Below are positions 292 through 23,400 of a stretch of 64,000 nucleotides of DNA, piece by piece. The notes beneath the pieces were generated by a model that was given only the letters and a program-made list of their open reading frames with translations, was not told the DNA's origin and made no database searches. The DNA is from Squalus acanthias (taxonomy: Eukaryota). A program made the translations under genes and the position numbers. Each line of letters begins with the position of its first letter. Positions within the stretch are counted from its first letter, which is position 1. The stretch is taken from contig JASTWF010000080.1 in assembly GCA_030390025.1 (NCBI GenBank), positions 62,001 to 126,000 of the forward strand, in the 5' to 3' direction.

Positions 292-1177
292 AGTGTCTGG
301 GAGGGTGAGACGGGGTCAGGAGGGGAGTGAGATTAGTCTGACCGGGTTGAACAGGGTCTGGAAGGGTGAGACGGGGTCAGGAGGGGAGTGAGATTAGTCT
401 GACAGGGTTGAACAGTGTCTGGGAGGGTGAGTCGGGGTCAGGAGGGGGAGTGAGATTAGTCTGACAGGGTTTAACAGTGTCTGGGAGGGTGAGACGGGGT
501 CAGGAGGGGAGTGAGATTAGTCTGACAGGGTTTAACAGTGTCTGGGAGGGTGAGACGGGGTCAGGAGGGGAGTGAGATTAGTCTGACAGGGTTTAACAGT
601 GTCTGGGAGGGTGAGACGGGATCAGGAGAGGAGTGAGATTAGTCTGACAGGGTTTAACAGTATCTGGGAGGGTGAGACGGGGTCAGGAGGGGGAGTGAGA
701 TTAGTCTGACAGGGTTTAACAGTGTCTGGGAGGGTGAGACGGGGTCAGGAGGGGAGTGAGATTAGTCTGACAGGGTTTAACAGTGTCTGGGAGGATGAGA
801 TGGGGTCAGGAGGGGAGTGAGATTAGTCTGACAGGGTTTAACAGTGTCTGGGAGGATGAGATGGGGTCAGGAGGGGATTGAGATTAGTCTGACAGGGTTT
901 AACAGTGTCTGGGAGGATGAGATGGGGTCAGGAGGGGAGTGAGATCAGCCTGACAGGGTTTAACAGTGTCTGGGAGGGTGAGACGGGGTCAGGAGCGGAG
1001 TGAGATTAGTCTGACAGGGTTTAACAGTATCTGGGAGAGTGAGATGGGGTCAGGAGGGGAGTGAGATTAGTCTGACAGGGTTTAACAGTGTCTGGGAGGG
1101 TGAGATGGGGTCAGGAGGGGAGTGAGATTAGTCTGACAGGGTTTAACAGTGTCTGGGAGGGTGAGACGGGGTCAGGA
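292..1177. repeat. ~60-bp minisatellite (repeat B), left part, split by the foamy-like provirus
   Basis: Tandem GGGAGGGTGAGACGGGGTCAGGAGGGGAGTGAGATTAGTCTGACAGGGTTTAACAGTGTCT; resumes in register at 7628. Confidence 0.95.
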
Positions 1178-2287
1178 TCAAGGGATAATTACTAGCCCTA
1201 GCCCATTTGTGGCTACCCCGGATCAGGCATATTTCTCAGATGTTCACTTTCAACTATAGTTTGGGTTAGCTGCATCCGAAAGACGCTTAATTGGGTGTAA
1301 AGGTCCGGACTATCTCTCCCTAAAGGAAAGGAACAACTCGAGAATGTTACCGTCCTCCAGATAGCACTTTTAATAAGTTTAGCTAGACTGTAACGTTCCG
1401 GATATTATGAGGGTCCGGAAAACTCCCCCAGAATTCTGCAACTCCTCACCAAAGAGTGTACAGAGATTGAGTATGCGAGTTTTTGATGCAGAAGTCTTGT
1501 GAGACAATTCTAAAAATATATAGATTTATTAAAGAACCGGCATGCAATTTACAGTTGGTGAATCAATCGCAACATGAACAGTTCCAAAAAGAGAAAACAT
1601 ACGATCATTTTAACAGAGAATCTTACTTTCAAATCTTAACTTCGCTACAGTATTACAGTTCTTAAAGTGTTCCACAGAATATCCACCAATATCAAATACC
1701 TTTGATCCCCGAGGTACAAAGAGCTGAAGCCGAGAATCGCTTTGCCTGATTAAAGCGAGTCTGTTATCCCATTTGAGAGTTCAATATTTATATCCTTTTC
1801 CAGTGGTATTTCCTTTAAAGTTTTCTGCTGATGCAAGCTAATTATCTCTAGTCATTTTTCTGCCAACCTCTGCAACTCTTACAGCCACCTCAGCCAGAAT
1901 CATGTCTCATCTCTAGGTGTTCTAAGTTTACCATATAAAAACAGTGTGACAGCAGGTGTTCCTTACTTTATGTCATCTTTACGAGGGCAGATGTTCCTTA
2001 TCTTATGTGCTTCTTTACAAAGTGTAAATTAGAACACCTTATCCAGGGTGAACCATTGTTTCGTTCCCGAAAGTTCAGCCTGTCGGAGCCCTTCACCTTC
2101 TGTTTCAATAAGGTTATTTATTCAGGGTCAACATCTATCTGATCTCAATAGCCAGAATGCTTTCACAGCTATTTCATAGTTAGGTTTCTAAATTTCCAAA
2201 CCCAGTTTGTCATGTTTTAATAAGGCCAGAATTCTTTCATAAGATAGTGTATTTTTCTGAATAGGTTATATGGCTTATTCCTTCACA
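1178..2287 (-). repeat. 3' LTR of the foamy-like provirus
   Basis: Direct repeat of 6505-7627; preceded on the minus strand by the PPT; minus strand begins TGTGAAGG. Confidence 0.9.
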
Positions 2288-2788
2288 CCCACCTCTTGAC
2301 TAAAAAATGAGCTCGAACATCAGTGCAGAGTTTGGTCAATGTTACAAATAAGGTTGCAATAGTACATTAATTTCACGAGATTCACAAGAGCCCAATCATG
2401 TGCTACATGAAAATTCCTTTAAGTCATCCCAGGACTATGTTTTACCTTATTTTAAATTGAACACAAATGAAAAGAATGATAGGAACATTGTCATGCAATT
2501 AGCGAAACAACATGTACTTAGAATGTCCAATTGACAGATGTATGTTCCGTAGAGCTGAGTTATTCATACGAGTTAAGGAGACGTCATTTGGAGCTGGCTG
2601 AAGCTTGACACAATGTTCCATTGATCCAGCGTGAGGACAGATTCTTGTTTTCGTAAAGGCCTTGCCAGAATCTCAGATGATTCCTTCTCCATCCACAGTG
2701 TTTCCTCCTTCGTTGAAGTAACTTGTTGGTCTTTACTTGTTTTGGTTGTGGCTTTTTGCGAATCCAATTTCTGAGGCGTTGCCAAGCA

Positions 2789-4368
2789 TCATGTGGAGGA
2801 GTCGGCGACACTGTCTGGCTGACTGTCGTCAGTAGTTCCATCGCATCCATTTGCTGTGTCGTGCTCCAAGCTGGGTCTTGGAAGACAGTGTACGACAGCA
2901 CCTTGTATTGTTCCTCCCTTCCGGTATCCAGCAGGACATCTTTTGAGATTGTCTATGGAGACAGTTTTAAGAATATGTTTGCCATTCGGCTGATTAATAT
3001 GTATTTTAACAGTTCTTTCATTAATAACGGAACGTATTTGAACAGGTTTTTTCCACTTATGTCTTAAACCAGGTTTTTGCTCGAACTTCTTTTCCTGTAC
3101 CCATTCTCCTGCTAGGGGTTGCCATGCTTTGTTTGTCAATTTTTTCTGCCTATTTGTCTCCCTTATCCTCTGATCAATTTAATGTATCTCCTCTGTTTCT
3201 TTTTTTAAATCTAACTGTCACTGTCGGGTAAAGGAATCAGAGAGTGCAGAGGCATTAAAAGAACTATGGGTAAGCGGTGTATGCATCTCAACCCCATACA
3301 TCAGATAATATGGAGTTTTAGGGGACACTGTCCCTGATGCAGATGCGGGCACATTATTGAGTGATAGCTGTACCTCCGGAATGACGGTGTTCCACTTATT
3401 TCCCCTGATTCTCAACAGTTTGACCAATAGCTTTTTTACTTCCTGGTTTTTACGTTCCACCAGCCCCGCTGATTGTGGATGACGTGGCGTGCTGTGCTCT
3501 AACCCAATCCCCCATTGCTCGCAGTAGTCTTTGAAGACCTTGGAGACAAAGGCTCCGCCTTGATCGGAGTGTAAGATTTTGGGTGCACCAGCTACAGTAA
3601 TTATGTCATTGGCGAGTGTGTTTTCCGAAACAGTTTTTGTGGGGACCAGCCAGCAGAAGGAAGTGCATCCATCTACACAAATGAGAACATGTCTGTATCC
3701 CAAAGATGGGGGAAGTGGTCCAATGAAGTCAATAATGAATTTTCCCATTGGTTCATCAGCTTTCACACAAGCCAATGGTGGTGGCTTAATTAGTGATGAC
3801 TCATTGGTTAAATAGCATGGCTCACAATTTGCCACGTATGTTTTACAGGCCTTAAGCATGCCTGGCCACCAATATAAGAGAGTCAATTTACAGAATGTTG
3901 TTCTGGCACCACAATGTGCTTGACCTATGCCCTCGTGAGCTCCTTTTACAAGCTATTCTCGTTTGTGTCTCGGGGGTACCTCTCGGTTTCCCTTGAGCAC
4001 AATACCAGTAGGGGTTTCTGAGTAAAAGTACTTTGATGGATATCCTGGTGGATTCTCTTTTGTTGGCTCTAATAGCTGAATCAGTTCCTCATCCTGATTA
4101 GCTGCCCGTTCTGCCCTAGTAATAACACTAATATTGGCAGGCCCCTCTCGAGGGGGTGTCATGCAGACTGAACATTTCGCTTGTTCGTCTGCAAGACTGT
4201 TTCCTTTTGAGTGTACTGTCCCAGTGGTATGCCCGTTTACATGAATCACCTGACAATTCTGTTTCTCCATCCTCGAACGGAGAATGTCTTCCCACAATGA
4301 CTTATGTTTTATGGGTTTAGCCTTATGGTTGGTAAAGTTTGTTTGTTCCCAGAAAACTAGATCTTGGT
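2789..4368 (-). pseudogene. pol: Foamy-like pol: C-terminal RNase H and integrase, with in-frame stops
   Basis: ORFs 3953-4381, 3218-3886 and 2789-3139 share one frame. Motifs: KPIKH..W, HVNGH, GNSLAD; HHCC (H..AHCG...CEPC); DDE (FIIDFIGPLPPS, LHSDQGGAF, HPQSAGLVERKN); C-terminal W.KP and TVSIDNLK as in prototype foamy virus integrase. Confidence 0.9.
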
Positions 4369-5024
4369 ATAACAACAGCAAACGCTGGAAAAACTCAGCA
4401 GGCCAGGTAGCATCCGTGGAGAGAGAAACAGAGTTAACGTTTCAGGTCGAAGACCTTTCGTCAGAACTGGAAAAAAGCAGGAAATGAAATAGATTTAAAG
4501 CAAGTATAAAGCTGGGAAAAGGGGGAGGGGATGAAAGAACAAAGGGGAAGGTCAGTGGTGGGATAGAAAGCAGGAGAGATTAAGAGACATTGAGAGACAT
4601 TAAGAGATAATCAAGGTAAGTGGAGGTGTTAATGTGACAGGTTGAGGCGAGATGAAGTGTGAGATGCGCTGGCAGAATGAAGGACAGCTGCCAGCTTATG
4701 GGAGGGGGGAAAAAAGGCCAAACAAAAGGGTGGATGAAAAAAAATATATAAATGTGATAGGGGCCAAGGTTATGATCTGAAATTGTTGAACTCAATGTTG
4801 AGTCCAGAGGGCTGTAGGGTGCCTAAACGAAAGATGAGGTGCTGTTCCTCGAGCCTACGCTGAGCTTCCGTGGAACAATGCAAGAAGCCGAGGACGGTGA
4901 GGTCAGAGTGGGAGTGGAGCGGAGAATTAAAGTGACAGTCCACCGGGAGCTCGGGGTCCCCCTTACGGACTGAACGGAGGTGTTCCGCAAAGCGGTCACC
5001 CAATCTGCGTTTGGTCTCCCCAAT
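4369..5024 (-). mobile_element. 5'-truncated Penelope-like element (GIY-YIG endonuclease C-terminus plus 3' region) inserted in foamy RNase H
   Basis: IGETKRRLGDRFAEHLRSV...HFN...RRLEEQHLIFRLGTLQPSGLNIEF; flanked by duplicated ATCTTGGT (4361-4368; 5023-5030 and 5032-5039). Confidence 0.85.
4431..4470 (-). ncRNA. Minimal hammerhead ribozyme motif in the Penelope 3' region
   Basis: Minus strand CCAGTT-CTGACGA-A-AGGTC-TTC-GACCT-GAAAC-GTT-AACT: CUGANGA and GAAA cores, stem II, stem I AGUU/AACU, loop-less palindromic stem III. Confidence 0.7.
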
Positions 5025-5031
5025 CTTGGTT

Positions 5032-5345
5032 ATCTTGGTTATATCCTCTTTTACAATAGTCACTATCTGTACAGATTAATGTGGGTTTAAGAGGGTCTGC
5101 CTTTTCTAAAGCATACGGCTTCAGGATATTGCGCTGTTTTATGGCCAAGGGGTATGGACAGTAATTCTTCTGGATAAAAAGAATAGGAATCTCAAAAAGT
5201 CCCTGCTACTATCCCCATCCCAGCTGAGGATTGTTGGGATGTCCCTTTTTTAATCGTCATTGACGATCCCTCATAGTAAATGACTTGTTGGTAGCAATCG
5301 TTTGAATTTCCTAATAAAAAGACTTGGCCAATTCCGACAGGGTTT
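5032..5345 (-). pseudogene. pol: Foamy-like pol: N-terminal RNase H fragment
   Basis: Manual translation YQQVIYYEGSS...SAGMGIV...LSIPLGHKTAQYPE...TLICTDSDY matches foamy FYTDGS/AGMGIV/WSIPLGNHTAQMAE/ITDSFY; contains a stop and a frameshift. Confidence 0.8.
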
Positions 5346-5470
5346 GCCATTTCGTCAGGACCTAACCTCGGTTAGGATTTAATATGAACTTTATAAGAAA
5401 TTTCTAGACCTGAATGGTATATTGAGGGAGTTCTGATTTAAGTTCTACAAGGCCTGATCAGGGACTTCTT

Positions 5471-6357
5471 GGGGGAAAAATTCAGTTGGTTGCGCCTCCC
5501 GTTAGTGCCTTAAGAGGGCACTAATGGGGCGCAAAGCAACTAGTGCCCGGGCGCGGCGATGTTTGCGCCGCTCGCGAAATTAACTAGACATTTTGCGGCG
5601 GCGCTAAACAGTACCGCCACGATCTCCTGCGCCGGCAGATCGTGACGTCAGTCGAGTGCGCAACGCCCCGGTAGTGCCACGGAGCGGATATTGAGTGGCG
5701 CCCCCTGCCTTACCGCCTGCCGCTAGCAACGACAGGTTGAGGGAAGCGTTTTGCAGTCAGGAAGGGACTGGGGAGCGCTATTTAAAGGCGACCGCTTCCT
5801 GCCTTTTTTTGTTGGCGACATTTTTGAACCACGCATTCGGAGAGAGAGAGAGTTCTGGAGAGATTCAACGCTGTGTGAAGGAGTTTTGGGTACTGTGCAG
5901 TACTTTGCAGGTTCATTTTGATTTGCCCTTCCTTGTATCGATTTAGAAGTCACTGTGGGGGCTGCACTCTGAGCTCTTTCCCTGGGCCTCCCCATTGCTC
6001 TTTCCAGCAGATTTGATGTACAGGTTTCTCCAGGCCGAGATTCAAGGCTGCAATGAGCAGGATGTGGATGGAAAGCAAGATCAACCCTCCCCTTTAAGAA
6101 CTGGCCGGGGCCATTTTGTGTGTGTTCCATTGCTGACTGACATCACATGAGCTTCGCCAGCGCGCTGAGTTAGCGCCTCGCTCCTCGGCCTTTGCGCCTT
6201 AAGACAGAGGTGTAGCGCCTGATTTAGCGCTCCAATCACCTCCAGGGGCGATAAAAGTCAAGTTTGCAGTCGGAGGGCGATAATTAGCGCCAGGCGCTAA
6301 TCTTTGCGCCGGGCTGATAATTGCACCCCAAACGGGGCGATACTGAATTTCCCCCCC
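5471..6357. mobile_element. ~890-bp non-autonomous TIR DNA transposon (probably PIF/Harbinger-type) nested in the provirus leader
   Basis: Imperfect TIRs GGGGNNNAAATTCAGT; 3-bp flanks CTT/GTT; same family as 24814-25706 and 44343-45235, in opposite orientation. Confidence 0.7.
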
Positions 6358-6504
6358 GTTGTCTCTAGAGACTTAAATCTGGGTCTTAGTACCACTGTCA
6401 GTAAAACACTCCTTCTATACTTAACAATATACGAGATGGATATAGATATAAATATAAGTAGATGGTTCTGTATCAACTCATTAACACACACGTTGGTCGC
6501 CAAC

Positions 6505-7627
6505 TGAAGGGATAATTACTAGTCCTAGCCCCTTTAGGGCTGCCCCGGATCAGGCGTATTTCTCAGACGTTCACTTTCAACTAAAGTTTGAGGTAGCCGA
6601 ATCCTAAAGACGCTTAATTGGGTCTAAAGGTCTGGTCTATCTCTCCCTGAAGGAAAGTAACAACCCGAGAATGTTACCGTCCTCCAGATAGCACTTTTAA
6701 TAAGTTTTGCTAGACTGTAACGTTCCGGCCATTATGAGGGTCCGGAAAACTCCCCCAGAATTCTGCAACTCCTCACCAAAGAGTGTACAGAGATTGAGTT
6801 TGCGAGTTTTTGATACAGAAGTCTTATGTGAGACAATTCTAAAAATATATAGATTTATTAAAGAACCGGCATGCAGTTTACAGTTGGTGAATCAATCGCA
6901 ACATTTACAGTTCCAAAAAGAGAAAACATACGATCTTTTTAACAGAGAATTTTACTTTCAAATCTGAACTTCGCTACAGTATTACAGTTCTTAAAGTGTT
7001 CTACAGGATATCCACCAATATCAAATACCTTTGATCCCCGAGGTAAAAAGAGTTTGAGAATACAGAGCCGCCTCTGAAGCCAAGAATCGCTTTGCCCAAT
7101 TAAAGTAAGTCTGTTATCCCATTTGAGAGTTCAATATTTATACCCTTATCCAGTGGTATTTCCTTTAAGGTTTTCTGCTGATGCAAGCTAATTATCTCTA
7201 GTCATTTTTCTGTCACTTTTACAGCCACCTCAGCCAGAATCATGTCTCATCTCCAGGTGTTCTAAGTTTACCATATAAAAACAGTGTGAGGGCAGGTGTT
7301 CCTTACTTTATGTCATCTTGACGAGGGCAGATGTTTCTTACCTTATGTGCTTCTTTACGAAGTGTAAATTAGAACACCTTATCCAGGGTGAACCATTGTT
7401 TCGTTCCCAAAAGATCAGCCTGTCGGAGCCCTTCACCTTCTGTTTCAATAATGTTATTTATTCAGGGTCAACATCTATCTTTACTCAATAGCCAGAACGC
7501 TTTCACAGCTATTTCATAGTTAGGTTTCTACATTTCCAAACCCAGCTTGTCATGTTTTAATAAGGCCAGAATTCTTTCATAAGGTAGTGTATTTTTCTGA
7601 CTAGGTTATATGGCTTATTCCTTCACA
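6505..7627 (-). repeat. 5' LTR of the foamy-like provirus
   Basis: Minus strand TGTGAAGG...CCCTTCA, followed by the PBS; minus-strand AATAAA at 6854-6859. Confidence 0.9.
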
Positions 7628-7927
7628 AGGAGGGGAGTGAGATTAGTCTGACAGGGTTTAACAGTGTCTGGGAGGGTGAGACAGGATCAGGAGGGGAGTG
7701 AGATTAGTCTGACAGGGTTTAACAGTGTCTGGGAGGGTGAGACAGGATCAGGAGGGGAGTGAGATTAGTCTGACAGGGTTTAACAGTGTCTGGGAGGGTG
7801 AGACGGGGTCAGGAGGGGAGTGAGATTAGTCTGACAGGGTTTAACAGTGTCTGGGAGGGTGAGACAGGATCAGGAGGGGAGTGAGATTAGTCTGACAGGG
7901 TTTAACAGTGTCTGGGAGGGTGAGACG
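7628..7927. repeat. ~60-bp minisatellite (repeat B), right part
   Basis: Same unit as 292-1177. Confidence 0.95.
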
Positions 7928-7984
7928 GCGTCGGTGAGGATGTGAGTGTGTGTGGCGGGTTTGATGCTTGACATTATGCCTGGT

Positions 7985-8300
7985 CTGTGCTCCCAGTACT
8001 GGAGATTCCCCACACTCACTCTGTCCCTCAGTTCTACATTCCTCTCTCTCACTCTCTCCTCTCAGTGCCCTGTGCTCCCAGTACTGGAGATTCCCCACAC
8101 TCACTCTGTCCCTCAGTTCTACATTCCTCTCTCTCACTCTCCCCTCTCAGTGCCCTGTGCTCCCAGTACTGGAGATTCCCCACACTCACTCTGTCCCTCA
8201 GTTCTACATTCCTCTCTCTCACTCTCTCCTCTCAGTGCCCTGTGCTCCCAGTACTGGAGATTCCCCACACTCACTCTGTCCCTGAGTTCTACATTTCCCG
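7985..8300. repeat. 85-bp tandem repeat in the intron after the TM exon (also 38447-38645 and 59312-59680)
   Basis: Unit starts CTGTGCTCCCAGTACTGGAGATTCCCCACACTCAC at 7985, 8070, 8155 and 8240. Confidence 0.9.
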
Positions 8301-8316
8301 TCTCTCTGATTCTTAC

Positions 8317-8430
8317 CTCTCCGTTGTTTTATCCAGATGAATATTCCGAATATCCCGATTATAACCAGTGCCGCAACTAATGCCATTATAATTCCAGGAT
8401 GGGAGCATGCACCACTGTTTTTCGGTATTT
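8317..8430 (-). CDS. MHC class I gene 1 connecting peptide/TM exon
   Basis: [38 protein letters not shown]; tttcag acceptor, gtaaga donor. Confidence 0.85.
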
Positions 8431-11400
8431 CTGAAACACATTTGAATAATATCAGGATAGTCTCTCTGTTCCCGGATCTATTCCCAGTTCTGTGTCGACG
8501 GAGGGACAATTTTAACCTCACCCGCCCATCGGGAATCTGAGGGATCGGGTCCAACGCTGGTTTTACTCTCGCCTGATCTCACTCTCCATTGGAGTCAATA
8601 AAGAGTCTCATTGATGGTGGTGTTGGACCAGCGTTGCCCCGATCTCCGGGGTTACCTGCCCGGCGAGCTCGGTTCAATTTACCCCCCATGTCTCTGTGTC
8701 CTGTCCTGGGTCCATCCCCAGGGTCACATTGTACGCCCCAGGAGTCAGCATCATTGACGGATTTCGCATCAAACTTCAAAGGGATGGGGAATAAATTGAC
8801 TGCAGCAAACTGGGCTGAGCTGGTAATGAGTAAAGCTACAGATAAACAGTGGGAACGCTTCAAAAAAGTACCGGGTACAATCCAACACCAGGACTTTCCC
8901 CGACAACGCAAAGACTCCACTTCTGTAGTTAGGCAACCATGGTCGACAAATGAAAGAAGTGAGAGTATCCAGGTAAAGGGAAAGGCTGACACAGTGACCA
9001 GAGATTGAGATACAGAGCACTTAGACAAGTATCGGCTGAACAGAGAGTCAGCATGGATTTGTGAAGGGTAGGTCCTGTCTGACTAATCTAATTGAATTTT
9101 ATGAGGAGGTCACTAACATGGTGGATAAGGGAGTGTCGGTGGATGTTGTGTATATGGACTACCAGAAGGCATTTGATAAGGTTCCTCACATGAGATTATT
9201 AGCAGAAATAAAAGCTTACAGAATTGGAGCTAATCTTGTGACATGGGTTGAAAATTGGCTGGGAGGAAGGAGGCAGAGAATCGGGATAAAGGGAATGTGC
9301 TCCGATTGGCAGGATGTTCCGAGTGGTGTTCCCCAGGGATCTGTACTGAGGCCTCAGCTTTTCACCATATATATCAATGACTTGGATGAAGGAACAGGGA
9401 GTTGTATATCCAAGTTTGCAGATGGCACTAAGTTAGGAGGCACAGTAAAGGGACATTGACAGATTAAATGACTCAACCGCATCTGCCACAGTTTTGCCCA
9501 AGGTGGGGAAGTGTGAGATCATCCATGCGAGATCTGAGAAAGACAGATTGGAATATTGTCTCAATGGTGACAGACCAGGAGCTGTAAAGGAGCAAAGAGA
9601 TTTGGGTGTCCATGTCCACAAATCACTAAAAGCTCGTGCCAGGGTTAAATAAAGCAATCAAAAAGGCTAACAGAATGTTGGCCTTTATCTCAAGAGGGTG
9701 AGAATAGAAAGTGGGGAAATTATGCTTCAGTTGTACAGACCCTTGGTCAGACTCCATCTGGCGTATTACATTCAGTTCTTGGCACCAAACCTCACGTAAG
9801 ATATATTGGCCTTGGAGTGGGTACAGAGCAGATTCACCAGAATGATACCAGCTCAGAGGGTTAAATTTTGAGGACAAAGTTGGCTTGTATTGCGCTGAGC
9901 GTAGAAGGGTGAAGGGTGATCACATTGAGGTGTTTAAAATGATAAAGGGATTCGATAGGGTAGATACAGAGAAACTATTTTCACTGGTGGTGAATCCGGA
10001 ACAAAAGAGCATAATCTTAAAATTGGAGCCAGGACAGTTAGAGTGAAATCAGAAAGCACTTCTTCACACAAAGGGCAGTGGAAATCTGGAACTCTCTCCC
10101 CCAAAAGTCTGTGGGTTCAATTGAAATTTTTATGACTGAGATCGAGTGATTTTTGTTGGGTTAGGGAATCAAGGGATGTAGAGCAATGGTGGCTAAATGG
10201 AGTTGAGGTACTGATCAGTCATGATCTCATTGAATGGTGGAACAGACTCAAGGGGCCGAATGTCCTACTCCTGTTCCTATGTTCCATACATGCTCACAGA
10301 GACACGCACACATCCAGTGCAGTTCCTTACCCCACCGATAGACCTTTGCCTCTGCCAGGCTGCTGTGTTCAATTTGACAGGAGTATTGATCCTCATCCCC
10401 AGCATTCACTTCAATCTCTTTCTTGATCTGATGGGTCCCATTGTGGTTCGGTCGAACCCCCGAGGAGTGGCTCTCAGACATTGGCTCTCCATTCCTTAGC
10501 CAGGTCACCTCGATGTCTACAGGGTAAAATCCAGTAACCAGGCAGGAGAGAGTAGGCAGTTTGTACTGACTATTGGGGTCACTTCTGGAGATGAACACTT
10601 CGGGCTGAACTGAAAGGGGAAAGGGAGAAAACACAAACAGCAGACTGACACCGAATGGAATGGGAGAACGGTTTCATAGATCTGTGAAGTTAGATCAGAA
10701 CATGGGAAAAAACTGAAATCAATACCTTTCCTTTCAAAATATTCCTTTCCAGCTCGCAAATATAAATGTAAATACTCAACAAATCCTTCTTCCAGATGTG
10801 TTTTCCAATACTTGTTCCAGGATTCATCCGAATTCCATTTTTCCTTAGTCTTCACTGCATAGTGATTGGATGCGACCCATCTCATTCTGTCTGGCTCTAA
10901 ACTAAGATAGTCCTTTCCGTCATATCCAACACGCATCGATCTCTTAACGGAGCCGTCGTCAGTTATTTCAGCAATTGAAATCCATTGAAAAATGTGAACT
11001 CCTGTCAGTGACCAAACAGGGATCAATAATCAATAATCAATAGTTCATAGAAAATCACAAATCAGTCTGATCAGAGGGGAAAGGGGCTGCAGAATCAGAT
11101 AGAAATGGGGGGTTAGAGTCACAGTCTGATCAGAGGGGAAAGGGACTGTAGTATCAGGGGGAAATGGGGGGTTAGAGTCACAGTCTGATCAGTGGGGAAA
11201 GGGACTGCAGAATCAGGTTTAATATCAGAAGGATTTCCCAGTGGAAGGTGATTCTTGGACTTTTAGCGGCGAGTTCACAGACCAGCCTGAACCGTCCTGT
11301 TAATGGGCAGTGTTTGAACTGAATGATTATTGGGAATTGGGCAGACATCCATTATGGTACCCAACCACGAGAGTTGAATCCCTCGAGTGTATGCAAAGGG

Positions 11401-14400
11401 GTTAATTCCCAGCACGGAAACGAAAGGGGTTACTTCACGGATTGTCCCACGGATCAGTGTTGGGAGATGGGCTGAGTGGAGTGTCCCAGGGATCAGTGCT
11501 GGGAGATGGGCTGAGTGGAGTGTCCCAGGGATCAGTGTCGGAGATGGACTGAGTGGAGTGTCCCAGGGGTCAGTGCTGGGGACTGAGTGGAGTGTCCCAG
11601 GGATCAGTGCTGGGAGATGGGCTGAGTGGAGTGTCCCAGGGATCAGTGCTGGGAGATGGGCTGAGTGGAGTGTCCCAGGGATCAGTGCTGGGAGATGGGC
11701 TGAGTGGAGTGTCCCAGGGATCAGTGCTGGGAGATGGACTGAGTGGAGTGTCCCAGGGATCAGTGCTGGGAGATGGGCTGAGTGGAGTGTCCCAAGGATC
11801 AGTGCTGGGAGATGGGCTGAGTGGAGTGTACAAGGGGTCAGTGCTGGGAGCTGGGCTGAGTGGAGTGTCCCAAGGATCTGTGCTGGGAACTGGGCTGAGT
11901 GGAGTGTCCCAGGGGTCAGTGCTGGGAGATGGACTGAGTGGAGTGTCCCAGGGATCAGTGCTGGGAGATGGGCTGAGTGGAGTGTCCCAGGGATCAGTGG
12001 TGGGAGATGGGCTGAGTGGAGTGTCCCAGGGATCAGTACTGGGAGATGGACTGAGTGGAGTGTCCCAGGGGTCAGTGCTGGGAGATGGACTGAGTGGAGT
12101 GTCCCAGGGGTCAGTGCTGGGAGATGGACTGAGTGGAGTGTCCCAGGGGGTCAATGCTGGGGACTGAGTGGAGTGTCCCAGGGATCAGTGCTGGGAGATG
12201 GACTGAGTGGAGTGTCCCAGGGATCAGTGCTGGGAGATGGGCTGAGTGCAGTGTCCCAGGGATCAGTGCTGGGAGATGGACAGAGTGGAATGTCCAAAGG
12301 ATCAGTGCTGGGAGATGGGCTGAGTGGAGTGTCCCAGGGATCAGTGCTGGGGACTGAGTGGAGTGTCCGAGGGATCAGTGCTGGGAGATGGGCTGAGTGG
12401 AGTGTCCCAGGGATCAGTGCTGGGAGATGGGCTGAGTGGAGTGTCCCAGGGATCAGTGCTGGGAGATGGGCTGAGTGCAGTGTCCCAGGGATCAGTGCTG
12501 GGGACTGAGTGGAGTGTCCAAGGGATCAGTGCTGGGAGATGGGCTGAGTGGAGTGTCCCAGGGATCAGTGCTGGGAGATGGGCTGAGTGGAGTGTCCCAG
12601 GGATCAGTGCTGGGAGATGGGCTGAGTGGAGTGTCCCAGGGTTCAGTGCTGGGAGATAGGCTGAGTGGAGTGTCCCAGGGATCAGTGCTGGGAGATGGAC
12701 TGAGTGGAGTGTCCCAGGGGTCAGTGCTGGGAGATGGACTGAGTGGAGTGTCCCAGGGATCAGTGCTGGGAGATGGGCTGAGTGGAGTGTCCCAGGGGTC
12801 AGTGCTGGGAGATGGGCTGAGTGGAGTGTCCCAGGGTCAGTGCTGGGAGATGGGCTGAGTGGAGTGTCCCAGGGTTCAGTGCTATGGACTGAGTGGAGTG
12901 TCCCAAATATCAGTGCTATGGACTGAGTGGAGTTTCCCAGGGATCAGTGCTATGGACTGAGTGGAGTGTCCCAGGGATCAGTGCTATGGACTGAGTGGAG
13001 TTTCCCAGGGATCAGTGCTATGGACTGAGTGGAGTTTCCCAGGGATCAGTGCTGGGAGATGAACTGAGTGGAGTGTCCCAGGGGTCAGTGCTGTGAGATG
13101 AACTGCGTGGAGTGTCCCAGGGGTCAGTGATGTGAGATGAACTGAGTGGAGTGTCCCAGGGATCAGTGCTGGGAGATGGGCTGAGTGGAGTGTCCCAGGG
13201 ATCAGTGCTGGGAGATGGGCGGAGTGGAGTGTCCCAGGGATCAGTGCTGGGAGATGGGCTGAGTGGAGTGTCCCAGGGATCAGTGCTGGGAGATGGGCGG
13301 AGTGGAGTGTCCCAGGGGTCAGTGCTGGGAGATGGGCTGAGTGGAGTGTCCCAGGGATCAGTGCAGGGGAATGAGTGAAGTGTCCCAGGGATCAGTGCTG
13401 GGAGATGGGCTGAGTGGAGTGTCCCAGGGATCAGTGCTGGGAGATGGGCTGAGTGGAGTGTCCCAGGGATCAGTGCTGGGGACTGAGTGGATTGTCCCAG
13501 GGGTCAGTGCTGAGAAATGGGCTGAGTGGAGTGTCCCAGGGATCAGTGCTGGGAGATGGGCTGAGTGGAGTGTCCCAGGAATCAGTGCTGGGAGATGGGC
13601 TGAGTGGAGTGTCCCAGGGGTCAGTGCTGGGAGATGGGCTAAGTGGAGTGTCCCAGGAATCAGTGTTGGGAGATGGGCTGAGTGGAGTGTCCCAGGGATC
13701 AGTGCTGGGAGATGGGCTGAGTGGAGTGTCCCAGGGATCAGTGCTGGGAGATGGGCGGAGTGGATTGTCCCAGGGATCAGTGCTGAGAGATGGACTGAGT
13801 GGAGTGTCCCAGGGATCAGTGCTGGGAGATGGGCTGAGTGGAGTGTCCCAGGGATCAGTGCTGGGAGATGGACTGAGTGGAGTGTCCCAGGGATCAGTGC
13901 TCGAGATGGACAGAGTGGATTGTCCCACGGATCAGTGCTGGGAGATGGGCTGAGTGGAGTGTCCCAGGGATCAGTGCTGGGGACTGAGTGGAGTGTCCCG
14001 GGGATCAGTGCTGGGGGCTGAGTGGAGTGTCCCAGGGGTCAGTGCTGGGAGATGGGCTGAGTGGAGTGTCCCAGGGATCAGTGCTGGGAGATGGGCTGAG
14101 TGGAGTGTCCCAGGGATCAGTGCTGGGAGATGGACTGAGTGGAGTTTCCCAGGGATCAGTGCTATGGACTGAGTGGAGTGTCCCAGGGATCAGTGCTATG
14201 GACTGAGTGGAGTTTCCCAGGGATCAGTGCTATGGACTGTGTGGAGTTTCCCAGGGATCAGTGCTGGGAGATGAACTGAGTGGAGTGTCCCAGGGGTCAG
14301 TGCTGTGAGATGAACTGCGTGGAGTGTCCCAGGGGTCAGTGCTGTGAGATGAACTGAGTGGAGTGTCCCAGGGATCAGTGCTGGGAGATGGGCTGAATGG

Positions 14401-17400
14401 AGTGTCCCAGGGGTCAGTGCTGTGAGATGAACTGCGTGGAGTGTCCCAGGGATCAGTGCTGGGAGATGAACTGAGTGGAGTGTCCCAGGGATCAGTGCTG
14501 GGAGATGGGCTGAATGGAGTGTCCCAGGGGTCAGTGCTGGGAGATGGGCTGAGTGGAGTGGCCCAGGGATCAGTGCTGGGAGATGGGCGGAGTGGAGTGT
14601 CCCAGGGATCAGTGCTGGGAGATGGGCTGAGTGGAGTGTCCCAGGGATCAGTGCTGGGAGATGGGCGGAGTGGAGTGTCCCAGGGGTCAGTGCTGGGAGA
14701 TGGGCTGAGTGGAGTGTCCCAGGGATCAGTGCTGGGGACTGAGTGGATTGTCCCAGGGGTCAGTGCTGAGAAATGGGCTGAGTGGAGTGTCCCAGGGATC
14801 AGTGCTGGGGGATAGGCTGAGTGGAGTGTCCCAGGGATCAGTGCTGGGGGATGGGCTGAGTGGAGTGTCCCAGGGATCAGTGCTGGGAGATGGGCTGAGT
14901 GGAGTGTCCCAGGGTTCAGTGCTATGGACTGAGTGGAGTGTCCCAAATATCAGTGCTATGGACTGAGTGGAGTGTCCCAGGGATCAGTGCTATGGACTGA
15001 GTGGAGTTTCCCAGGGATCAGTGCTGGGAGATGAACTGAGTGGAGTTTCCCAGGGATCAGTGCTGGGAGATGAACTGAGTGGAGTGTCCCAGGGGTCAGT
15101 GCTGTGAGATGAACTGCGTGGAGTGTCCCAGGGGTCAGTGCTGTGAGATGAACTGAGTGGAGTGTCCCAGGGATCAGTGCTGTGAGATGAACTGAGTGGA
15201 GTGTCCCAGGGATCAGTGCTGGGAGATGAACTGAGTGGAGTGTCCCAGGGATCAGTGCTGGGAGATGGGCTGAATGGAGTGTCCCAGGGGTCACTGCTGG
15301 GAGATGGGCTGAGTGGAGTGTCCCAGGGATCAGTGCTGGGAGATGGGCTGAGTGGAGTGTCCCAGGGATCAGTGCAGGGGAATGAGTGGAGTGTCCCAGG
15401 GATCAGTGCTGGGAGATGGGCGGAGTGGAGTGTCCCAGGGGTCAGTGCTGGGAGATGGGCTGAGTGGAGTGTCCCAGGGATCAGTGCTGGGGACTGAGTG
15501 GATTGTCCCAGGGGTCAGTGCTGAGAAATGGGCTGAGTGGAGTGTCCTAGGGGTCAGTGCTGGGAGATGGACTGAGTGGAGTGTCCCAGGGATCAGTGCT
15601 GGGAGATGGGCTGAGTGGAGTGTCCCAGGGATCAGTGCTGGGAGCTGGGCTGAGTGGAGTGTCCCAGGGATCAGTGCTGGGAGATGGGCTGAGTGGAGTG
15701 TCCCAGGGATCAGTGCTGGGAGATGGGTTGATTGGAGTGTCCCAGGGATCAGTGCTGGGAGATGGGCTGAGTGGAGTGTCCCAGGGATCAGTGCTGGGAG
15801 ATGGGCTGAGTGGAGTGTCCCAGGGATCAGTGCTGGGACATGGACTGAGTGGAGTGTCCCAGGGGGTCAGTGCTGGGAGATGGACTGAGTGGAGTGTCCC
15901 AGGGATCAGTGCTGGGAGATGGACTGAGTGGAGTGTCCCAGGGATCAGTGCTGGGAGATGGGTTGATTGGAGTGTCCCAGGGATCAGTGCTGGGAGATGG
16001 GCTCAGTGGAGTGTCCCAGGGATCAGTGCTGGGAGATGGGCTGAGTGGAGTGTCCCAGGGATCAGTGCTGGGAGATGGGCTGAGTGGAGTGTCCCAGGGA
16101 TCAGTGCTGGGAGATGGGCTGAGTGGAGTGTCCCAGGGATCAGTGCTGGGAGATGGACTGAGTGGAGTGTCCCAGGGATCAGTGCTGGGAGATGGGCTGA
16201 GTGGAGTGTCCCAGGGGTCAGTGCTGGGGCCTGAGTGGAATGTCCCAGGGAGCAGTGCTGGGAGATGGGCTGAGTGGAGTGTCTCAGGGATCAGTGCTGG
16301 GAGATGGGCTGAGTGGATTGTCCCAGGGGTCAGTGCTGGGAGATGGGTTGAGTGGATTGTCCCAGGGATCAGTGCTGGGAGATGGGTTGATTGGAGTGTC
16401 CCAGGGATCAGTGCTGGGAGATGAGCTGAGTGGAGTGTCCCAGGGATCAGTGCTGGGAGATGGGCTGAGTGGAGTCTCCCAGCGGTCAGTGCTGGGAGAT
16501 GGGCTCAGTGGAGTGTCCCAGGGGTTAGTGCTGGGGACTGAGTGAATTGTCCCAGGGATCAGTGCTGGGAGATGGGCTGAGTGGAGTGTCCCAGAGTTCA
16601 GTGCTGGGGACTGAGTGGAGTGTCCCAGGGATCAGTGCTGGGAGATCGGTTGATTGGAGTGTCCGAGGGATCAGTGCTGGGAGATGGGCTGAGTGGAGTG
16701 TCCCAGGGATCAGTGCTGGGGGATGGGCTGAGTGGAGTGTCCCAGGGATCAGTGCTGGGGACTGAGTGGATTGTCCCAGGGGTCAGTGCTGAGAAATGGG
16801 CTGAGTGGAGTGTCCCAGGGATCAGTGCTGGGGGATAGGCTGAGTGGAGTGTCCCAGGGATCAGTGCTGGGGGATGGGCTGAGTGGAGTGTCCCAGGGAT
16901 CAGTGCTGGGAGATGGGCTGAGTGGAGTGTCCCAGGGTTCAGTGCTATGGACTGAGTGGAGTGTCCCAAATATCAGTGCTATGGACTGAGTGGAGTGTCC
17001 CAGGGATCAGTGCTATGGACTGAGTGGAGTTTCCCAGGGATCAGTGCTATGGACTGAGTGGAGTTTCCCAGGGATCAGTGCTGGGAGATGAACTGAGTGG
17101 AGTGTCCCAGGGGTCAGTGCTGTGAGATGAACTGCGTGGAGTGTCCCAGGGGTCAGTGCTGTGAGATGAACTGAGTGGAGTGTCCCAGGGATCAGTGCTG
17201 TGAGATGAACTGAGTGGAGTGTCCCAGGGATCAGTGCTGGGAGATGAACTGAGTGGAGTGTCCCAGGGATCAGTGCTGGGAGATGGGCTGAATGGAGTGT
17301 CCCAGGGGTCAGTGCTGGGAGATGGGCTGAGTGGAGTGTCCCAGGGATCAGTGCTGGGAGATGGACTGAGTGGAGTGTCCCGGGGATCAGTGGTGGGAGA

Positions 17401-20400
17401 TGGGCTGAGTGGAGTGTCCCAGGGGTCAGTGCTGGGAGCTGGGCTGAGTGAAGTGTCCCAAGGATCTGTGCTGGGAACTGGGCTGAGTGGAGTGTCCCAG
17501 GGATCAGTGCTGGGAGACGGGCAGAGTGGAGTGTCCCAGGGATCAGTGCTGGGAGATGGACTGAGTGGAGAGTCCCAGGGTCAGTGCTGGGAGATGGGCT
17601 TAGTGGAGTGTCCCAGGGATCAGTGCTGGGAGATGGGCTGAGTGGAGTGTCCCAGGGATCAGTGCTGGGAGATGGGCTGAGTGGAGTGTCCCAGGGATCA
17701 GTGCTGGGAGATGGACTGAGTGGAGTGTCCCAGGGATCAGTGCTGGGAGATGGGCTGAGTGGAGTGTCCCAGGGATCAGTGCTGGGAGATGGGCTGAGTG
17801 GAGTGTCCCAGGGATCAGTGCTGGGAGATGGGCTGAGTGGAGTGTCCCAGGGATCAGTGCTGGGAGATGGGCTGAGTGGAGTGTCCCAGGGATCAGTGCT
17901 GGGAGATGGACTGAGTGGAGTGTCCCAGGGATCAGTGCTGGGAGATGGGCTGAGTGGAGTGTCCCAAGGATCAGTGCTGGGAGATGGGCTGAGTGGAGTG
18001 TACAAGGGGTCAGTGCTGGGAGCTGGGCTGAGTGGAGTGTCCCAAGGATCTGTGCTGGGAACTGGGCTGAGTGGAGTGTCCCAGGGGTCAGTGCTGGGAG
18101 ATGGACTGAGTGGAGTGTCCCAGGGATCAGTGCTGGGAGATGGGCTGAGTGGAGTGTCCCAGGGATCAGTGGTGGGAGATGGGCTGAGTGGAGTGTCCCA
18201 GGGATCAGTACTGGGAGATGGACTGAGTGGAGTGTCCCAGGGATCAGTGGTGGGAGATGGGCTGAGTGGAGTGTCCCAGGGATCAGTGCTGGGAGATGGG
18301 CTGAGTGGAGTGTCCCAGGGGTCAGTGCTGGGAGATGGGCTGAGTGGAGTGTCCCAGGGATCAGTGCTGGGAGATGGGCTGAGTGGAGTGTCGCAGGGAG
18401 CAGGGCTGGGAACTGGGTTGAGTGGAGTGTCCCAGGGGTCAGTGCTGGGAACTGGGCTGAGTGGAGTGTCCCAGGGATCAGTGCTGGGGCCTGAGTGGAG
18501 TGTCCCAGGGATCAGTGCTGGGAGACGGGTTGAGTGGAGTGTCCCAGGGATCAGTGCTGGGAGACGGGTTGAGTGGAGTGCCCCAGGGGTCAGTGCTGGG
18601 AGATGGGCTGAGTGGAGTGTCCCAGGGATCAGTGCTGGGTGATGGACTGAGTGGAGTGTCCCAGGGATCAGTGCTCGGAGCTGGGCTGAGTGGAGTGTCC
18701 CAGGAATCAGTGCTGGGAGATGGGCTAATGGAGTGTCCCAGGGATCAGTGCTGGTAGATGGGCTGAGTGGAGTGTCCCAGGGAGCAGGGCTGGGAGATGG
18801 GTTGAGTGGAGTGTCCCAGGGATCAGTGCTGGGAGATGGGCTGAGTGGAGTGTCCCAGGGATCAGTGCTGGGAGATCGGTTGATTGGAGTGTCCGAGGGA
18901 TCAGTGCTGGGGCCTGAGTTGAGTGTCCCAGGGATCAGTGCTGGGAGATGGGCTGAGTGGAGTGTCCCAGCGGTCAGTGCTGCGAGATGGACTGAGTGGA
19001 GTGTCCCAGGGGTCAGTGCTGGGAGATGGATTGAGTGGAGTGTCCCAGGGATCAATGCTGGGGGCTGAGTGGAGTGTCCCAGGGGTCAGTGCTGGGAGAT
19101 GGGCTGAGTGGAGTGTCCCAGGGATCAGTGCTGGGAGATGGGCTGAGTGGAGTGTCCCAGGGATCAGTGCTGGGAGATGGGCTGAGTGGAGTGTCCCGGG
19201 GGTCAGTGCTGGGAGATGGGCTGAGTGGAGTGTCCCAGGGATCAGTGCTGGGAGACGGGTTGAGTGGAGTGTCCCAGGGATCAGTGCTGGGAGATGGGCT
19301 GAGTGGAGTGTCCCAGGGATCAGTGCTGGGAGATGGGCTGAGTGGAGTGTCCCAGGGATCAGTGCTGGGAGATGGACTGAGTGGAGTGTCCCAGGGATCA
19401 GTGCTGGGAGATGGGCTGAGTGGAGTGTCCCAAGGATCAGTGCTGGGAGATGGGCTGAGTGGAGTGTACAAGGGGTCAGTGCTGGGAGCTGGGCTGAGTG
19501 GAGTGTCCCAAGGATCTGTGCTGGGAACTGGGCTGAGTGGAGTGTCCCAGGGGTCAGTGCTGGGAGATGGACTGAGTGGAGTGTCCCAGGGATCAGTGCT
19601 GGGAGATGGGCTGAGTGGAGTGTCCCAGGGATCAGTGGTGGGAGATGGGCTGAGTGGAGTGTCCCAGGGATCAGTACTGGGAGATGGACTGAGTGGAGTG
19701 TCCCAGGGATCAGTGGTGGGAGATGGGCTGAGTGGAGTGTCCCAGGGATCAGTGCTGGGAGATGGGCTGAGTGGAGTGTCCCAGGGGTCAGTGCTGGGAG
19801 ATGGGCTGAGTGGAGTGTCCCAGGGATCAGTGCTGGGAGATGGGCTGAGTGGAGTGTCGCAGGGAGCAGGGCTGGGAACTGGGTTGAGTGGAGTGTCCCA
19901 GGGGTCAGTGCTGGGAGATGGGCTGAGTGGAGTGTCCCAGGGGTCAGTGCTGGGAGATGGTCTGAGTGGAGTGTCCCAGGGATCAGTGCTGGGAGATGGG
20001 CAGAGTGGAGTGTCCCAGGGATCAGTGCTGGGGCCTGAGTGGAGTGTCCCAGGGATCAGTGCTGGGAGACGGGTTGAGTGGAGTGCCCCAGGGGTCAGTG
20101 CTGGGAGATGGGCTGAGTGGAGTGTCCCAGGGATCAGTGCTGGGTGATGGACTGAGTGGAGTGTCCCAGGGATCAGTGCTCGGAGCTGGGCTGAGTGGAG
20201 TGTCCCAGGAATCAGTGCTGGGAGATGGGCTAATGGAGTGTCCCAGGGATCAGTACTGGGAGATGGGCTGAGTGGAGTGTCGCAGGGGTCAGTGCTGGGA
20301 GATGGGCTGAGTGGAGTGTCCCAGGGATCAGTGCTGGGAGATGGGCTGAGTGGAGTGTCCCAGGGATCACTGCTGGGAGATGAGCTGAGTGGAGTGTCCC

Positions 20401-23400
20401 GGGGATCAGTGCTGGGAGATGGGCTGAGTGGAGAGTACAAGGGGTCAGTGCTGGGAGATGGGCTGAGTGGAGTGTCCCAGGGATCAGTGCTGGGAGCTGG
20501 GCTGAGTGGAGTGTCCCAAGGATCTGTGCTGGGAACTGGGCTGAGTGGAGTGTCCCAGGCGTCAGTGCTGGGAGATGGACTGAGTGGAGTGTCCCAGGGA
20601 TCAGTGCTGGGAGATGGGCTGAGTGGAGTGTCCCAGGGATCAGTGGTGGGAGATGGGCTGAGTGGAGTGTCCCAGGGAGCAGGGCTGGGAGATGGGTTGA
20701 GTGGAGTGTCCCAGGGGTCAGTGCTGGGAGATGGGCTGAGTGGAGTGTCCCAGGGATCAGTGCTGGGAGATCGGTTGATTGGAGTGTCCGAGGGATCAGT
20801 GCTGGGGCCTGAGTTGAGTGTCCCAGGGATCAGTGCTGGGAGATGGGCTGAGTGGAGTGTCCCAGCGGTCAGTGCTGCGAGATGGACTGAGTGGAGTGTC
20901 CCAGGGGTCAGTGCTGGGAGATGGATTGAGTGGAGTGTCCCAGGGATCAATGCTGGGGGCTGAGTGGAGTGTCCCAGGGGTCAGTGCTGGGAGATGGGCT
21001 GAGTGGAGTGTCCCAGGGATCAGTGCTGGGAGATGGGCTGAGTGGAGTGTCCCAGGGATCAGTGCTGGGAGATGGGCTGAGTGGAGTGTCCCGGGGGTCA
21101 GTGCTGGGAGATGGGCTGAGTGGAGTGTCCCAGGGATCAGTGCTGGGAGACGGGTTGAGTGGAGTGTCCCAGGGATCAGTGCTGGGAGATGGGCTGAGTG
21201 GAGTGTCCCAGGGATCAGTGCTGGGAGATGGGCTGAGTGGAGTGTCCCAGGGATCAGTGCTGGGAGATGGGCTGAGTGGAGTGTCTCAGGGATCAGTGCT
21301 GGGAGATGGGCTGAGTGTCGTGTCCCAGGGATCAGTGCTGGGTGATGGACTGAGTGGAGTGTCCCAGGGATCAATGCTGGGAGATGGGCTGAGTGGAGTG
21401 TCCCAGGGGTCAGTGCTGGGAGATGGGCTGAGTGGAGTGTCCCAGGGATCAGTGTTGGGAGATGGGCTGAGTAGAGTGTCCCAGGGATCAGTGCTGGGAG
21501 ATGGACTGAGTGGAGAGTCCCAGGGGTCAGTGCTGGGAGATGGGCTTAGTGGAGTGTCCCAGGGATCAGTGCTGGGAGATGGGCTGAGTGGAGTGTCCCA
21601 GGGATCAATGCTGGGAGATGGGCTGAGTGGAGTGTCCCAGGGATCAGTGCTGGGAGATGGGCTGAGTGGAGTGTCCCAGGGATCAGTGCTGGGAGATGGG
21701 CTGAGTGGAGTGTCCCAGGGATCAGTGCTGGGAGATGGGCTGAGTGGAGTGTCCCAGGGGTCAGTGCTGGGAGATGGGCTGAGTGGAGTGTCCCAGGGAT
21801 CAGTGCTGGGAGATGGGCTGAGTGGAGTGTCGCAGGGAGCAGGGCTGGGAACTGGGTTGAGTGGAGTGTCCCAGGGGTCAGTGCTGGGAGATGGGCTGAG
21901 TGGAGTGTCCCAGGGGTCAGTGCTGGGAGATGGTCTGAGTGGAGTGTCCCAGGGGTCAGTGCTGGGAGATGGACTGAGTGGAGTGTCCCAGGGGTCAGTG
22001 CTGGGAGATGGGCTGAGTGGATTGTCCCAGGGGTCAGTGCTGGGAGATGGGCTGAGTGGAGTGTCCCAGGGATCAGTGCTGGGAGATGGACTGAGTGGAG
22101 TGTCCCAGGGATCAGTGATGGGAGATGGACTGAGTGGAGTGTCCCAGGGATCAGTGCTGGGAGACGGGTTGAGTGGAGTGCCCCAGGGGTCAGTGCTGGG
22201 AGATGGGCTGAGTGGAGTGTCCCAGGGATCAGTGCTGGGTGATGGACTGAGTGGAGTGTCCCAGGGATCAGTGCTCGGAGCTGGGCTGAGTGGAGTGTCC
22301 CAGGAATCAGTGCTGGGAGATGGGCTAATGGAGTGTCCCAGGGATCAGTACTGGGAGATGGGCTGAGTGGAGTGTCGCAGGGGTCAGTGCTGGGAGATGG
22401 GCTGAGTGGAGTGTCCCAGGGATTAGTGCTGGGAGATGGGCTGAGTGGAGTGTCCCAGGGATCAGTGCTGGGAGATGAGCTGAGTGGAGTGTCCCGGGGA
22501 TCAGTGCTGGGAGATGGGCTGAGTGGAGTGTCCCAGGGATCAGGGCTGGGAGATGGACTGAGTGGAGTGTCCCAGGGGTCAGTGCTGGGGGCTGAGTGGA
22601 GTGTCCCAGGGATCAGTGCTCGGAGATGGACTGAGTGGAGTGTCCCAGGGGGTCAGTGCTGGGAGATGGACTGAGTGGAGTGTCCCAGGGATCAGTGATG
22701 GGAGATGGACTGAGTGGAGTGTCCCAGGGATCAGTGCTGGGAGATGGGTTGATTGGAGTGTCCCAGGGGTCAGTGCTGGGGCCTGAGTGGAATGTCCCAG
22801 GGAGCAGTGCTGGGAGATGGACTGAGTGGAGTGTCCCAGGGATCAGTGCTGGGAGATGGGCTGAGTGGAGTGTCCCAGCGGTCAGTGCTGGGAGATGGAC
22901 TGAGTGGAGTGTCCCAGGGATCAGTGCTGGGAGATGGGCTCAGTGGAGTGTCCCAGGGATCAGTGCTGGGAGATGGGCTGAGTGGAGTGTCCCAGGGATC
23001 AGTGCTGGGAGATGGACTGAGTGGAGTGTCCCAGGGATCAGTGCTGGGAGATGGGCTGAGTGGAGTGTCCCAAGGATCAGTGCTGGGAGATGGGCTGAGT
23101 GGAGTGTACAAGGGGTCAGTGCTGGGAGCTGGGCTGAGTGGAGTGTCCCAAGGATCTGTGCTGGGAACTGGGCTGAGTGGAGTGTCCCAGGCGTCAGTGC
23201 TGGGAGATGGACTGAGTGGAGTGTCCCAGGGATCAGTGCTGGGAGATGGGCTGAGTGGAGTGTCCCAGGGATCAGTGGTGGGAGATGGGCTGAGTGGAGT
23301 GTCCCAGGGATCAGTGCTGGTAGATGGGCTGAGTGGAGTGACCCAGGGAGCAGGGCTGGGAGATGGGTTGAGTGGAGTGTCCCAGGGGTCAGTGCTGGGA

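Follow-up and report, generated by a model that had tools for sequence, protein, structure and literature searches.

The window, by which we mean the whole stretch of 64,000 nucleotides analysed here (contig JASTWF010000080.1 of Squalus acanthias), contains a foamy-like provirus on the minus strand at positions 1178-7627 of its 64 kb, inside a cluster of major histocompatibility complex (MHC) class I genes. This copy lacks protease, reverse transcriptase (RT) and most of env, and is a dead deletion derivative, one degraded member of a deletion subfamily. An earlier sequence-only reading, made without database searches, had presented it as a special, readable provirus; instead it belongs to a subfamily with at least 42 exact-junction copies. 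We consider it quite probable that this internally deleted endogenous retrovirus (ERV) spread as packaged RNA with the Gag and Pol of fuller env-less copies. Taken singly, the locus is an ordinary dead copy, and the interest lies in the family-level pattern. Its features were as follows.

1174-1177, plus strand: left target-site duplication, AGGA
1178-2287, minus strand: 3' long terminal repeat (LTR), 1110 bp
2288-2297, minus strand: 3' polypurine tract (PPT), abutting the 3' LTR
2298-2611, minus strand: remnant of the stretch between env and the 3' LTR
2614-2645, minus strand: 32-bp mid-env scrap (from where the transmembrane subunit begins), belonging to the common env-loss junction
2644-2919, minus strand: env 5' remnant, about 90 codons of leader peptide, broken, overlapping the end of pol
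2690-4366 (low end approximate), minus strand: end of RNase H and integrase (zinc-binding, core, SH3), the region nearly always kept in deleted copies
4369-5031 (strand not given): nested insertion within RNase H, fragment of a common repeat
5032-5293, minus strand: RNase H part 1, with one stop and one frameshift
5293-5294, minus strand: deletion junction A, gag stub to RNase H in frame, about 3.3 kb of gag, protease, RT and tether gone
5294-5350, minus strand: gag stub, start codon and first 19 codons, matching the Gag start of whole-gag copies
5351-5470, minus strand: 5' leader part 2
5471-6357 (strand not given): nested insertion resembling a miniature inverted-repeat transposable element (MITE), with 16-bp inverted ends
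6358-6484, minus strand: 5' leader part 1, collinear with the uninterrupted copies L001 and L002
6485-6502, minus strand: primer-binding site (PBS) of tRNA-Lys1,2 type, beginning two bases past the end of the 5' LTR, 14 of 18 bases matching
6505-7627, minus strand: 5' LTR, 1123 bp, with TG...CA ends
7628-7631, plus strand: right target-site duplication, AGGA

The cis elements described in the sequence-only reading were largely recovered. Its paired LTRs of about 1.1 kb measured as listed above and were identical at 1039 of 1100 aligned bases (61 mismatches; 5.8% apart, Kimura two-parameter distance 0.058), and the AGGA duplication flanked both ends, the unbroken unit of the 61-bp host minisatellite at this site having AGGA once. 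The PBS match was slightly above the claimed two-thirds, with 13 of the first 14 bases agreeing; the reference was the Lys1,2 motif of that reading. The PPT was found next to the 3' LTR, and all eight of the named RNase H and integrase motifs were located. Positions 2789-4366 form a single frame with stops, carrying RNase H and the zinc-binding, core and SH3 domains of integrase. Beyond that account, the provirus has a second nested insertion (the MITE-like one, which is not in sibling copies and recurs elsewhere within the window), and its gag, protease, RT and env were lost via deletions common to many other copies. The insertion at 4369-5031, in which a Pfam scan found no match, is presumably Penelope/GIY-YIG-like.

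The foamy-like identity proposed in the sequence-only reading was borne out by the integrase, which scored 205 bits against prototype foamy virus structures and 55 bits against Ty3. In a 47-row integrase tree, feline foamy virus and amphibian elements shared a long branch (Shimodaira-Hasegawa-like approximate likelihood ratio test, SH-aLRT, 100) with the window copy, which did not group with Ty3/Gypsy, and the RT of a fuller natural copy fell in the foamy clade of a 36-row tree (SH-aLRT 99); both trees were quick ones without bootstrap, and no ray-finned-fish foamy-like ERV (FLERV) was identified among their references. Within the RT tree the family copy formed a trio (SH-aLRT 98) with a Scyliorhinus torazame protein, the closest named RT at 41% identity, and a 1687-residue protein. 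The Gag of a fuller copy matched PF20672 (spumavirus Gag central domain; 48.7 bits, cut-off 30), and no CCHC (Cys-His) box was found in that open frame. The A9 protease, PF03539, was above cut-off in two natural copies. Foamy Env, PF03408, gave 11 matches at 6 loci genome-wide, a floor since the genome search used a stricter filter, and all 6 adjoin family integrase. On reading, this Env has a long N-terminus with an internal hydrophobic stretch; the window retains only remnants. The PBS of one env-bearing copy matched the Lys1,2 motif at 17 of 18 bases, and of 9 other copies with two LTRs, 7 showed a 4-bp duplication clear by eye, as did 6 of 9 solo LTRs.

The fuller copies envisaged in the sequence-only reading exist with gag, pol and foamy Env; in env-bearing copies, the stretch of about 0.5-0.7 kb between env and the PPT held only broken frames. 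A scan of the integrase end in 5 natural copies turned up nothing close to the 3' PPT, only an 11-base purine run that the codons could explain. Since its RT and integrase cluster with foamy viruses, the family is an FLERV by definition. The Spumaretrovirinae hallmarks attributed to it hold for the Lys-type PBS, the 4-bp duplication and the foamy Gag, protease and Env, but not for a separate Pol frame or a central PPT copy. Because gag and pol lie in one frame and no central PPT copy was found, we file the family as foamy-like rather than as Spumaretrovirinae.

Several sequences seen beside these comparisons are recorded here. In L058, L059 and L063, broken frames span the post-env region through the PPT into U3, where foamy accessory genes sit, and possibly represent a decayed accessory gene. 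The 1687-residue protein, from a Logan contig of 10,956 bp, has a long N-terminus, protease, RT, RNase H and integrase in one frame, and its Gag-like N-terminus matched no Gag family. In the S. torazame protein P0094, part of a foamy-clade RT is fused to a PR/SET domain, an arrangement that could be a gene-model artefact or a co-option, and the Callorhinchus milii protein P0095 has a foamy-clade RT with an altered catalytic motif.

Genome searches returned 4,731 first-look candidates for the LTR, of which 40 were scored, and 15,016 for integrase, of which 150 were scored, all 84-100% identical; neither figure is a copy count. Solo LTRs made up 9 of the 12 top LTR matches that were fetched, and the other 3 had deletions like those of the window copy. 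When env loss was mapped on an env-bearing copy, 22 of 22 followable env-less copies broke and resumed at the same places (27 were mapped, 5 of them not followable past the integrase end), and the 32-bp mid-env scrap was detectable in 9 of the 22. A looser first test had matched the exact env-loss junction of the window in 38 of 53 copies, its 15 misses lying among the 27 mapped. Because all 22 have one junction, a single loss of env, preceding the burst, is most likely. Among 26 env-less whole gag-pol copies, the ratio of nonsynonymous to synonymous variants (N:S) was 2:15 in protease-RT for variants present in at least 3 copies against 218:84 for private ones, and 4:17 against 173:51 in tether-RNase H. 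Such mostly silent common variants are as expected if the whole gag-pol copies supplied working proteins. A foamy-lineage family would thus have reached high copy number after one env loss. By contrast, endogenous foamy viruses have been called rare (PMC6875641, PMC10581153). Our literature search, which did not cover subscription journals, found no report of an env-less or non-autonomous foamy-like family.

Compared with whole-gag copies, the window copy has lost about 3.3 kb at 5293, so that gag codon 19 runs in frame into the start of RNase H (junction A). A 21-base pattern over junction A was present at 42 places in the genome, the window copy being one base off it, and the pattern of an independent junction B was present at 36; the reversed-pattern control gave 0 for each. 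Junction-A copies lay on at least 18 contigs with differing target duplications, and the LTRs of the 10 copies with two full LTRs (from 20 loci fetched plus 6 studied earlier) had diverged by 0.038-0.058, with a median of 0.051. Because a copy without capsid or RT cannot copy itself, and because the exact junction recurs at 42 places, the deleted form of the window copy was likely copied in trans and retrotransposed. Splicing was ruled out as the origin of junctions A and B, there being no GT-AG ends at the joints. Among the matches listed, junction A was also bridged, with more than 31 bases on each side, in contigs of two other organisms, and the derivative is therefore likely older than the split of those organisms from the host. 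With shark substitution rates of 0.5e-9 (assumed in PMC10699275) and about 2.2e-10 (implied in PMC4422223), the LTR divergence of 0.058 corresponds to roughly 60-130 million years, a very uncertain figure. A type-B copy, L029, has a different retroviral integrase frame (3-1040) and an env-like frame (9023-9589) on either side, which suggests that it is nested in another ERV. A single contig with a B-type joint came from one sequencing run presumed to be of RNA, which speaks neither for nor against expression.

In order to see which parts deleted copies retain, we used a sample of copies picked by LTR end and PBS alone, so that integrase played no part in the choice, comprising 60 of 85 places in list order (left out were 5 studied earlier, 2 tandem neighbours and the last 18). 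The PPT was reached within 10 kb in 36 of the 60, and all 36 kept the leader and first gag codons, 23 kept mid-gag, 15-17 kept the RT core and 34-35 kept the region from the RNase H end through integrase. Nine deletions were common to at least two copies, and every one of them ended at or before the RNase H end; six preserved the reading frame, and three (D, H and I) shifted it. The kept zone is about 1.7 kb long, gag-RT losses stopping just before it and env loss just past it. Uniform random placement of deletions, a crude null that takes no account of nesting, left an equally long free zone in 0.015 of trials. The single copy without any integrase had a junction unique in the genome. Lineage G kept the integrase region though 9 of its 12 covered copies have a common stop in the zinc-binding part of integrase, and its N:S was neutral (81:32 for common variants vs 244:82, p 0.53); this combination favours a role at the RNA level. 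Separately, in the lineages with deletions D, E and G (for example L125, L132 and L149), each deletion was seen to take out one catalytic motif, that of protease, of RT or of RNase H, and to spare the adjoining sequence.

In foamy viruses, the cis-acting sequence CAS-I runs from the leader into early gag. A second one, CAS-II, takes up about 1.8 kb in 3' pol, and RNA packaging and Pol capture depend on it (PMC5035957). Because the kept zone matches foamy CAS-II in place and size, we lean, with modest confidence, towards regarding it as a CAS-II-like RNA element that would act in cis in packaging or Pol capture. On that reading, the deleted subfamilies would constitute a natural deletion scan for the parts of the RNA required in cis, and the outcome of the scan agrees with the CAS-I and CAS-II plan of primate and feline foamy viruses.

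The arrangement of gag and pol bears on the age of such a signal. All 12 distinct copies shown have gag and protease in a single frame, and none has an AUG after the joint and ahead of the catalytic motif; the codon at the joint was TGA in 80, TGG in 16 and TGC in 4 of the 100 listed from 143 matches (counted by eye); of two env-bearing copies keeping the joint, one had TGG and the other TGA. The joint might work by stop readthrough, to which we give somewhat under an even chance; an ancestral open fusion, in which TGA copies would depend on other copies, comes only slightly behind, and an unusual splice would be improbable. A UGA-CGG readthrough motif was rejected, the next codon being AGG. 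We also considered a two-partner system, with Gag coming from TGA copies and Gag-Pol from TGG copies. Common variants of TGA-only copies leaned silent in protease-RT-RNase H (35:35 vs 292:110, p 0.0002) and showed no such lean in integrase (14:5 vs 166:64); recombination, however, could account for the silent lean of TGA copies. Foamy Pol is a precursor separate from Gag, and an in-frame fusion still replicated in tests (PMC3196705). In a newt FLERV, the gag and pol coordinates overlap and the target duplication is also of 4 bp (PMC5512871 supplement).

On the usual view, the central signal is there for the Pol of mammalian foamy viruses, which is separate and spliced. As this shark family has gag and pol in one frame, we suggest, tentatively and well short of conviction, that it is a super-spreading, env-less foamy lineage whose deletion series maps a CAS-II-like signal older than that separate spliced Pol. 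If true, two defining foamy inventions would be ordered in time, and the one-frame joint together with the deletion series offers a route to asking how a separate Pol and RNA-bridged Pol packaging arose.

The alternatives concern what the element is, how it spread and why its central region was kept. It is hardly credible that the element is a Ty3/Gypsy element, a lokiretrovirus or another class III ERV. Such an identity could draw on the one-frame gag-pol with TGA, which resembles XtERV-S (PMC8278194), on the lack of env in most copies and on the absence of any named lokiretrovirus sequence from the trees, but the Gag central domain, A9 protease and foamy Env all exceeded Pfam cut-offs, RT and integrase joined feline foamy virus at SH-aLRT 99-100, and the RT region scored 476 bits against a foamy structure, 167 against Ty3 and 118 against the next retroviral RT. 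Lokiretroviruses are defined by an Env matching the paramyxovirus fusion family PF00523 (PMC7947760); none of four env frames matched it, three matching PF03408 only and one nothing. Nor do we find it at all probable that the deletion arose after insertion and spread by segmental duplication or gene conversion rather than by retrotransposition. The window locus was indeed duplicated once with its MHC gene, yet the number of contigs, the differing target duplications and the diverged LTR pairs of junction-A copies (0.038-0.058 apart in 10 of them) argue against it. A point against our own reading is that type A copies fail to group as a single clade in the integrase tree (4 changes, of which 2 are forced), a pattern that points to recombination or weak signal.

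For the kept region, the reading as a cis-acting RNA element also has several points against it. Its putative packaging role, which we favour only slightly, is read from the retention pattern. Partial nesting among the nine deletions, and the microhomologies at which several of them begin, mean that they cannot count as independent and make the null crude. Copies L144, L148 and L150 also lack parts of the kept zone, 24 of the 60 sampled copies were excluded as incomplete within 10 kb, and the central PPT copy that forms part of foamy CAS-II was not found in the 5 copies scanned. Moreover, common variants in RNase H-integrase lean silent in A (53:31 vs 334:106, p 0.021) and likewise in B (p 0.016), which, with the in-frame fusion of both, fits use of the protein too. 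The integrase region may accordingly have been kept for its protein, A and B elements having made integrase for themselves and taken only capsid and RT from others; we think this unlikely as the explanation, though for A and B it can coexist with a cis signal. That A and B arose independently, both in frame behind the gag start, and that two-thirds of the common deletions preserve frame would suit it, whereas the frameshifts of D, H and I and the spread of lineage G with its integrase stop and neutral variants would not, and recombination with helpers can import silent common variants. Still less likely, in our judgement, is that the zone was spared by chance, deletions having occurred at easy template-switch sites with later ones nested in earlier. 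Microhomologies of 2-9 bases at 6 of 8 measured common junctions (none or unclear at D and G), the nesting of C, D, E, F and G, and a zone defined after the data were seen speak for chance; against it are the 1.5% of random placements with a free zone this long, the close flanking by env loss and gag-RT losses, the agreement with foamy CAS-II in place and size, and the 10-kb filter, which would favour shorter integrase-less copies rather than miss them.

IAP deletion forms, ETn/MusD and MaLR are env-less or non-autonomous ERV derivatives. The shark family resembles these and ERV-L in its env loss, intracellular spread, trans-copied short forms and many solo LTRs; unlike them, it has a foamy-lineage parent, and its derivatives keep a central pol segment. 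In that last respect they recall replication-deficient foamy vectors, which need CAS-I and CAS-II (PMC5035957). Exogenous foamy viruses (prototype and feline) have in common with the family a Gag domain without Cys-His box, A9 protease, RT-tether-RNase H, integrase with SH3, foamy Env, Lys-type PBS, long LTRs and a 4-bp duplication, with identities to feline foamy virus of 42% in RT and 37% in RNase H-integrase, and primate foamy genomes are able to retrotranspose within cells (PMC3705263). The shark family differs from them in having gag and pro-pol in one frame, where foamy Pol is a separate precursor (PMC3196705), in being mostly env-less and high-copy, and in that no central PPT copy was found and no intact accessory frame seen. 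XtERV-S, a class III ERV of Xenopus, likewise has gag and pol in one frame split by TGA; it differs in its Env, which is of gamma type, and its published description does not present it as particularly foamy-like (PMC8278194), whereas the shark family has foamy Gag, protease and Env.

Closest in host are the FLERVs of cartilaginous fish, CmiFLERV and ERV-Spuma.0-Sca, which belong to the same broad clade and likely the same host group. An endogenous foamy virus of cartilaginous fish was reportedly described by Wang, Chen and Cui in 2023. The catshark element ERV-Spuma.0-Sca has gag and pol both annotated in frame 3, as in the one-frame layout here, and differs in its length (9220 bp), its 0.87-kb LTRs and its longer gag frame (PMC10699275), while CmiFLERV is known from pol only (PMC5512871). 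The accessible parts of the published descriptions of both make no mention of an env-less burst or a deletion series. Because cartilaginous-fish FLERVs have already been published, and since ours was set against them by description only, the novelty of the lineage is unproven.

The history that we propose would begin with an infectious ancestor entering the germ line and losing env once, becoming an intracellular retrotransposon. Template switching would then have produced shorter RNAs that were copied in trans, a step that we hold with high confidence. The window copy would have landed in the minisatellite, a short way beyond the transmembrane exon of an MHC class I gene, then taken its two insertions, decayed and been duplicated once with the MHC gene. 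The host features around it were as follows.

292-1177, resuming at 7628-7926 (strand not given): host 61-bp minisatellite, split by the provirus
8222-11029, minus strand: MHC class I exons upstream of the provirus (Pfam and reading)
within 8222-8578, minus strand: transmembrane exon (by eye)
within 10251-10673, minus strand: alpha-3 exon
within 10520-11029, minus strand: alpha-2 exon

The class I cluster noted in the sequence-only reading was confirmed by Pfam MHC_I and C1-set matches in three gene copies in the window, all on the minus strand. The shark-type label given to the cluster there is in keeping with the catshark origin of the closest named RT. The provirus lies about 600 bp past the transmembrane exon, on the same strand; the second MHC copy has the minisatellite without a provirus, and the third a matching minisatellite stretch. 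A duplicate provirus, L026 (C3663:12700-18700), lies about 50 kb away on the same contig, is 98.7-99.2% identical and has both nested insertions plus an extra deletion over the PBS and the inner end of the 5' LTR. Because this near-identical duplicate has the same insertion site, the MHC gene duplication came after the insertion. No sign of a provirus function in MHC was found at the locus, and the MHC class I setting looks incidental.

An exon-like piece with a stop follows the transmembrane exon in the two provirus-free MHC copies (at 37871 and 58289, minus strand) and was not found in the two provirus-bearing copies (compared with 7930-7985), which may therefore be without a cytoplasmic tail, the loss being outside the provirus. 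Downstream of the second MHC copy, at about 36000-37300 (and about 56000-57300), lies what appears by eye to be the end of another LTR element, with a different PBS-like site. In the MHC class I copies, a 39-bp tandem repeat of up to 12.5 kb (11400-23920, 41500-43200 and 63100-64000) takes up the intron that separates exons alpha-1 and alpha-2, and its length differs greatly from copy to copy.

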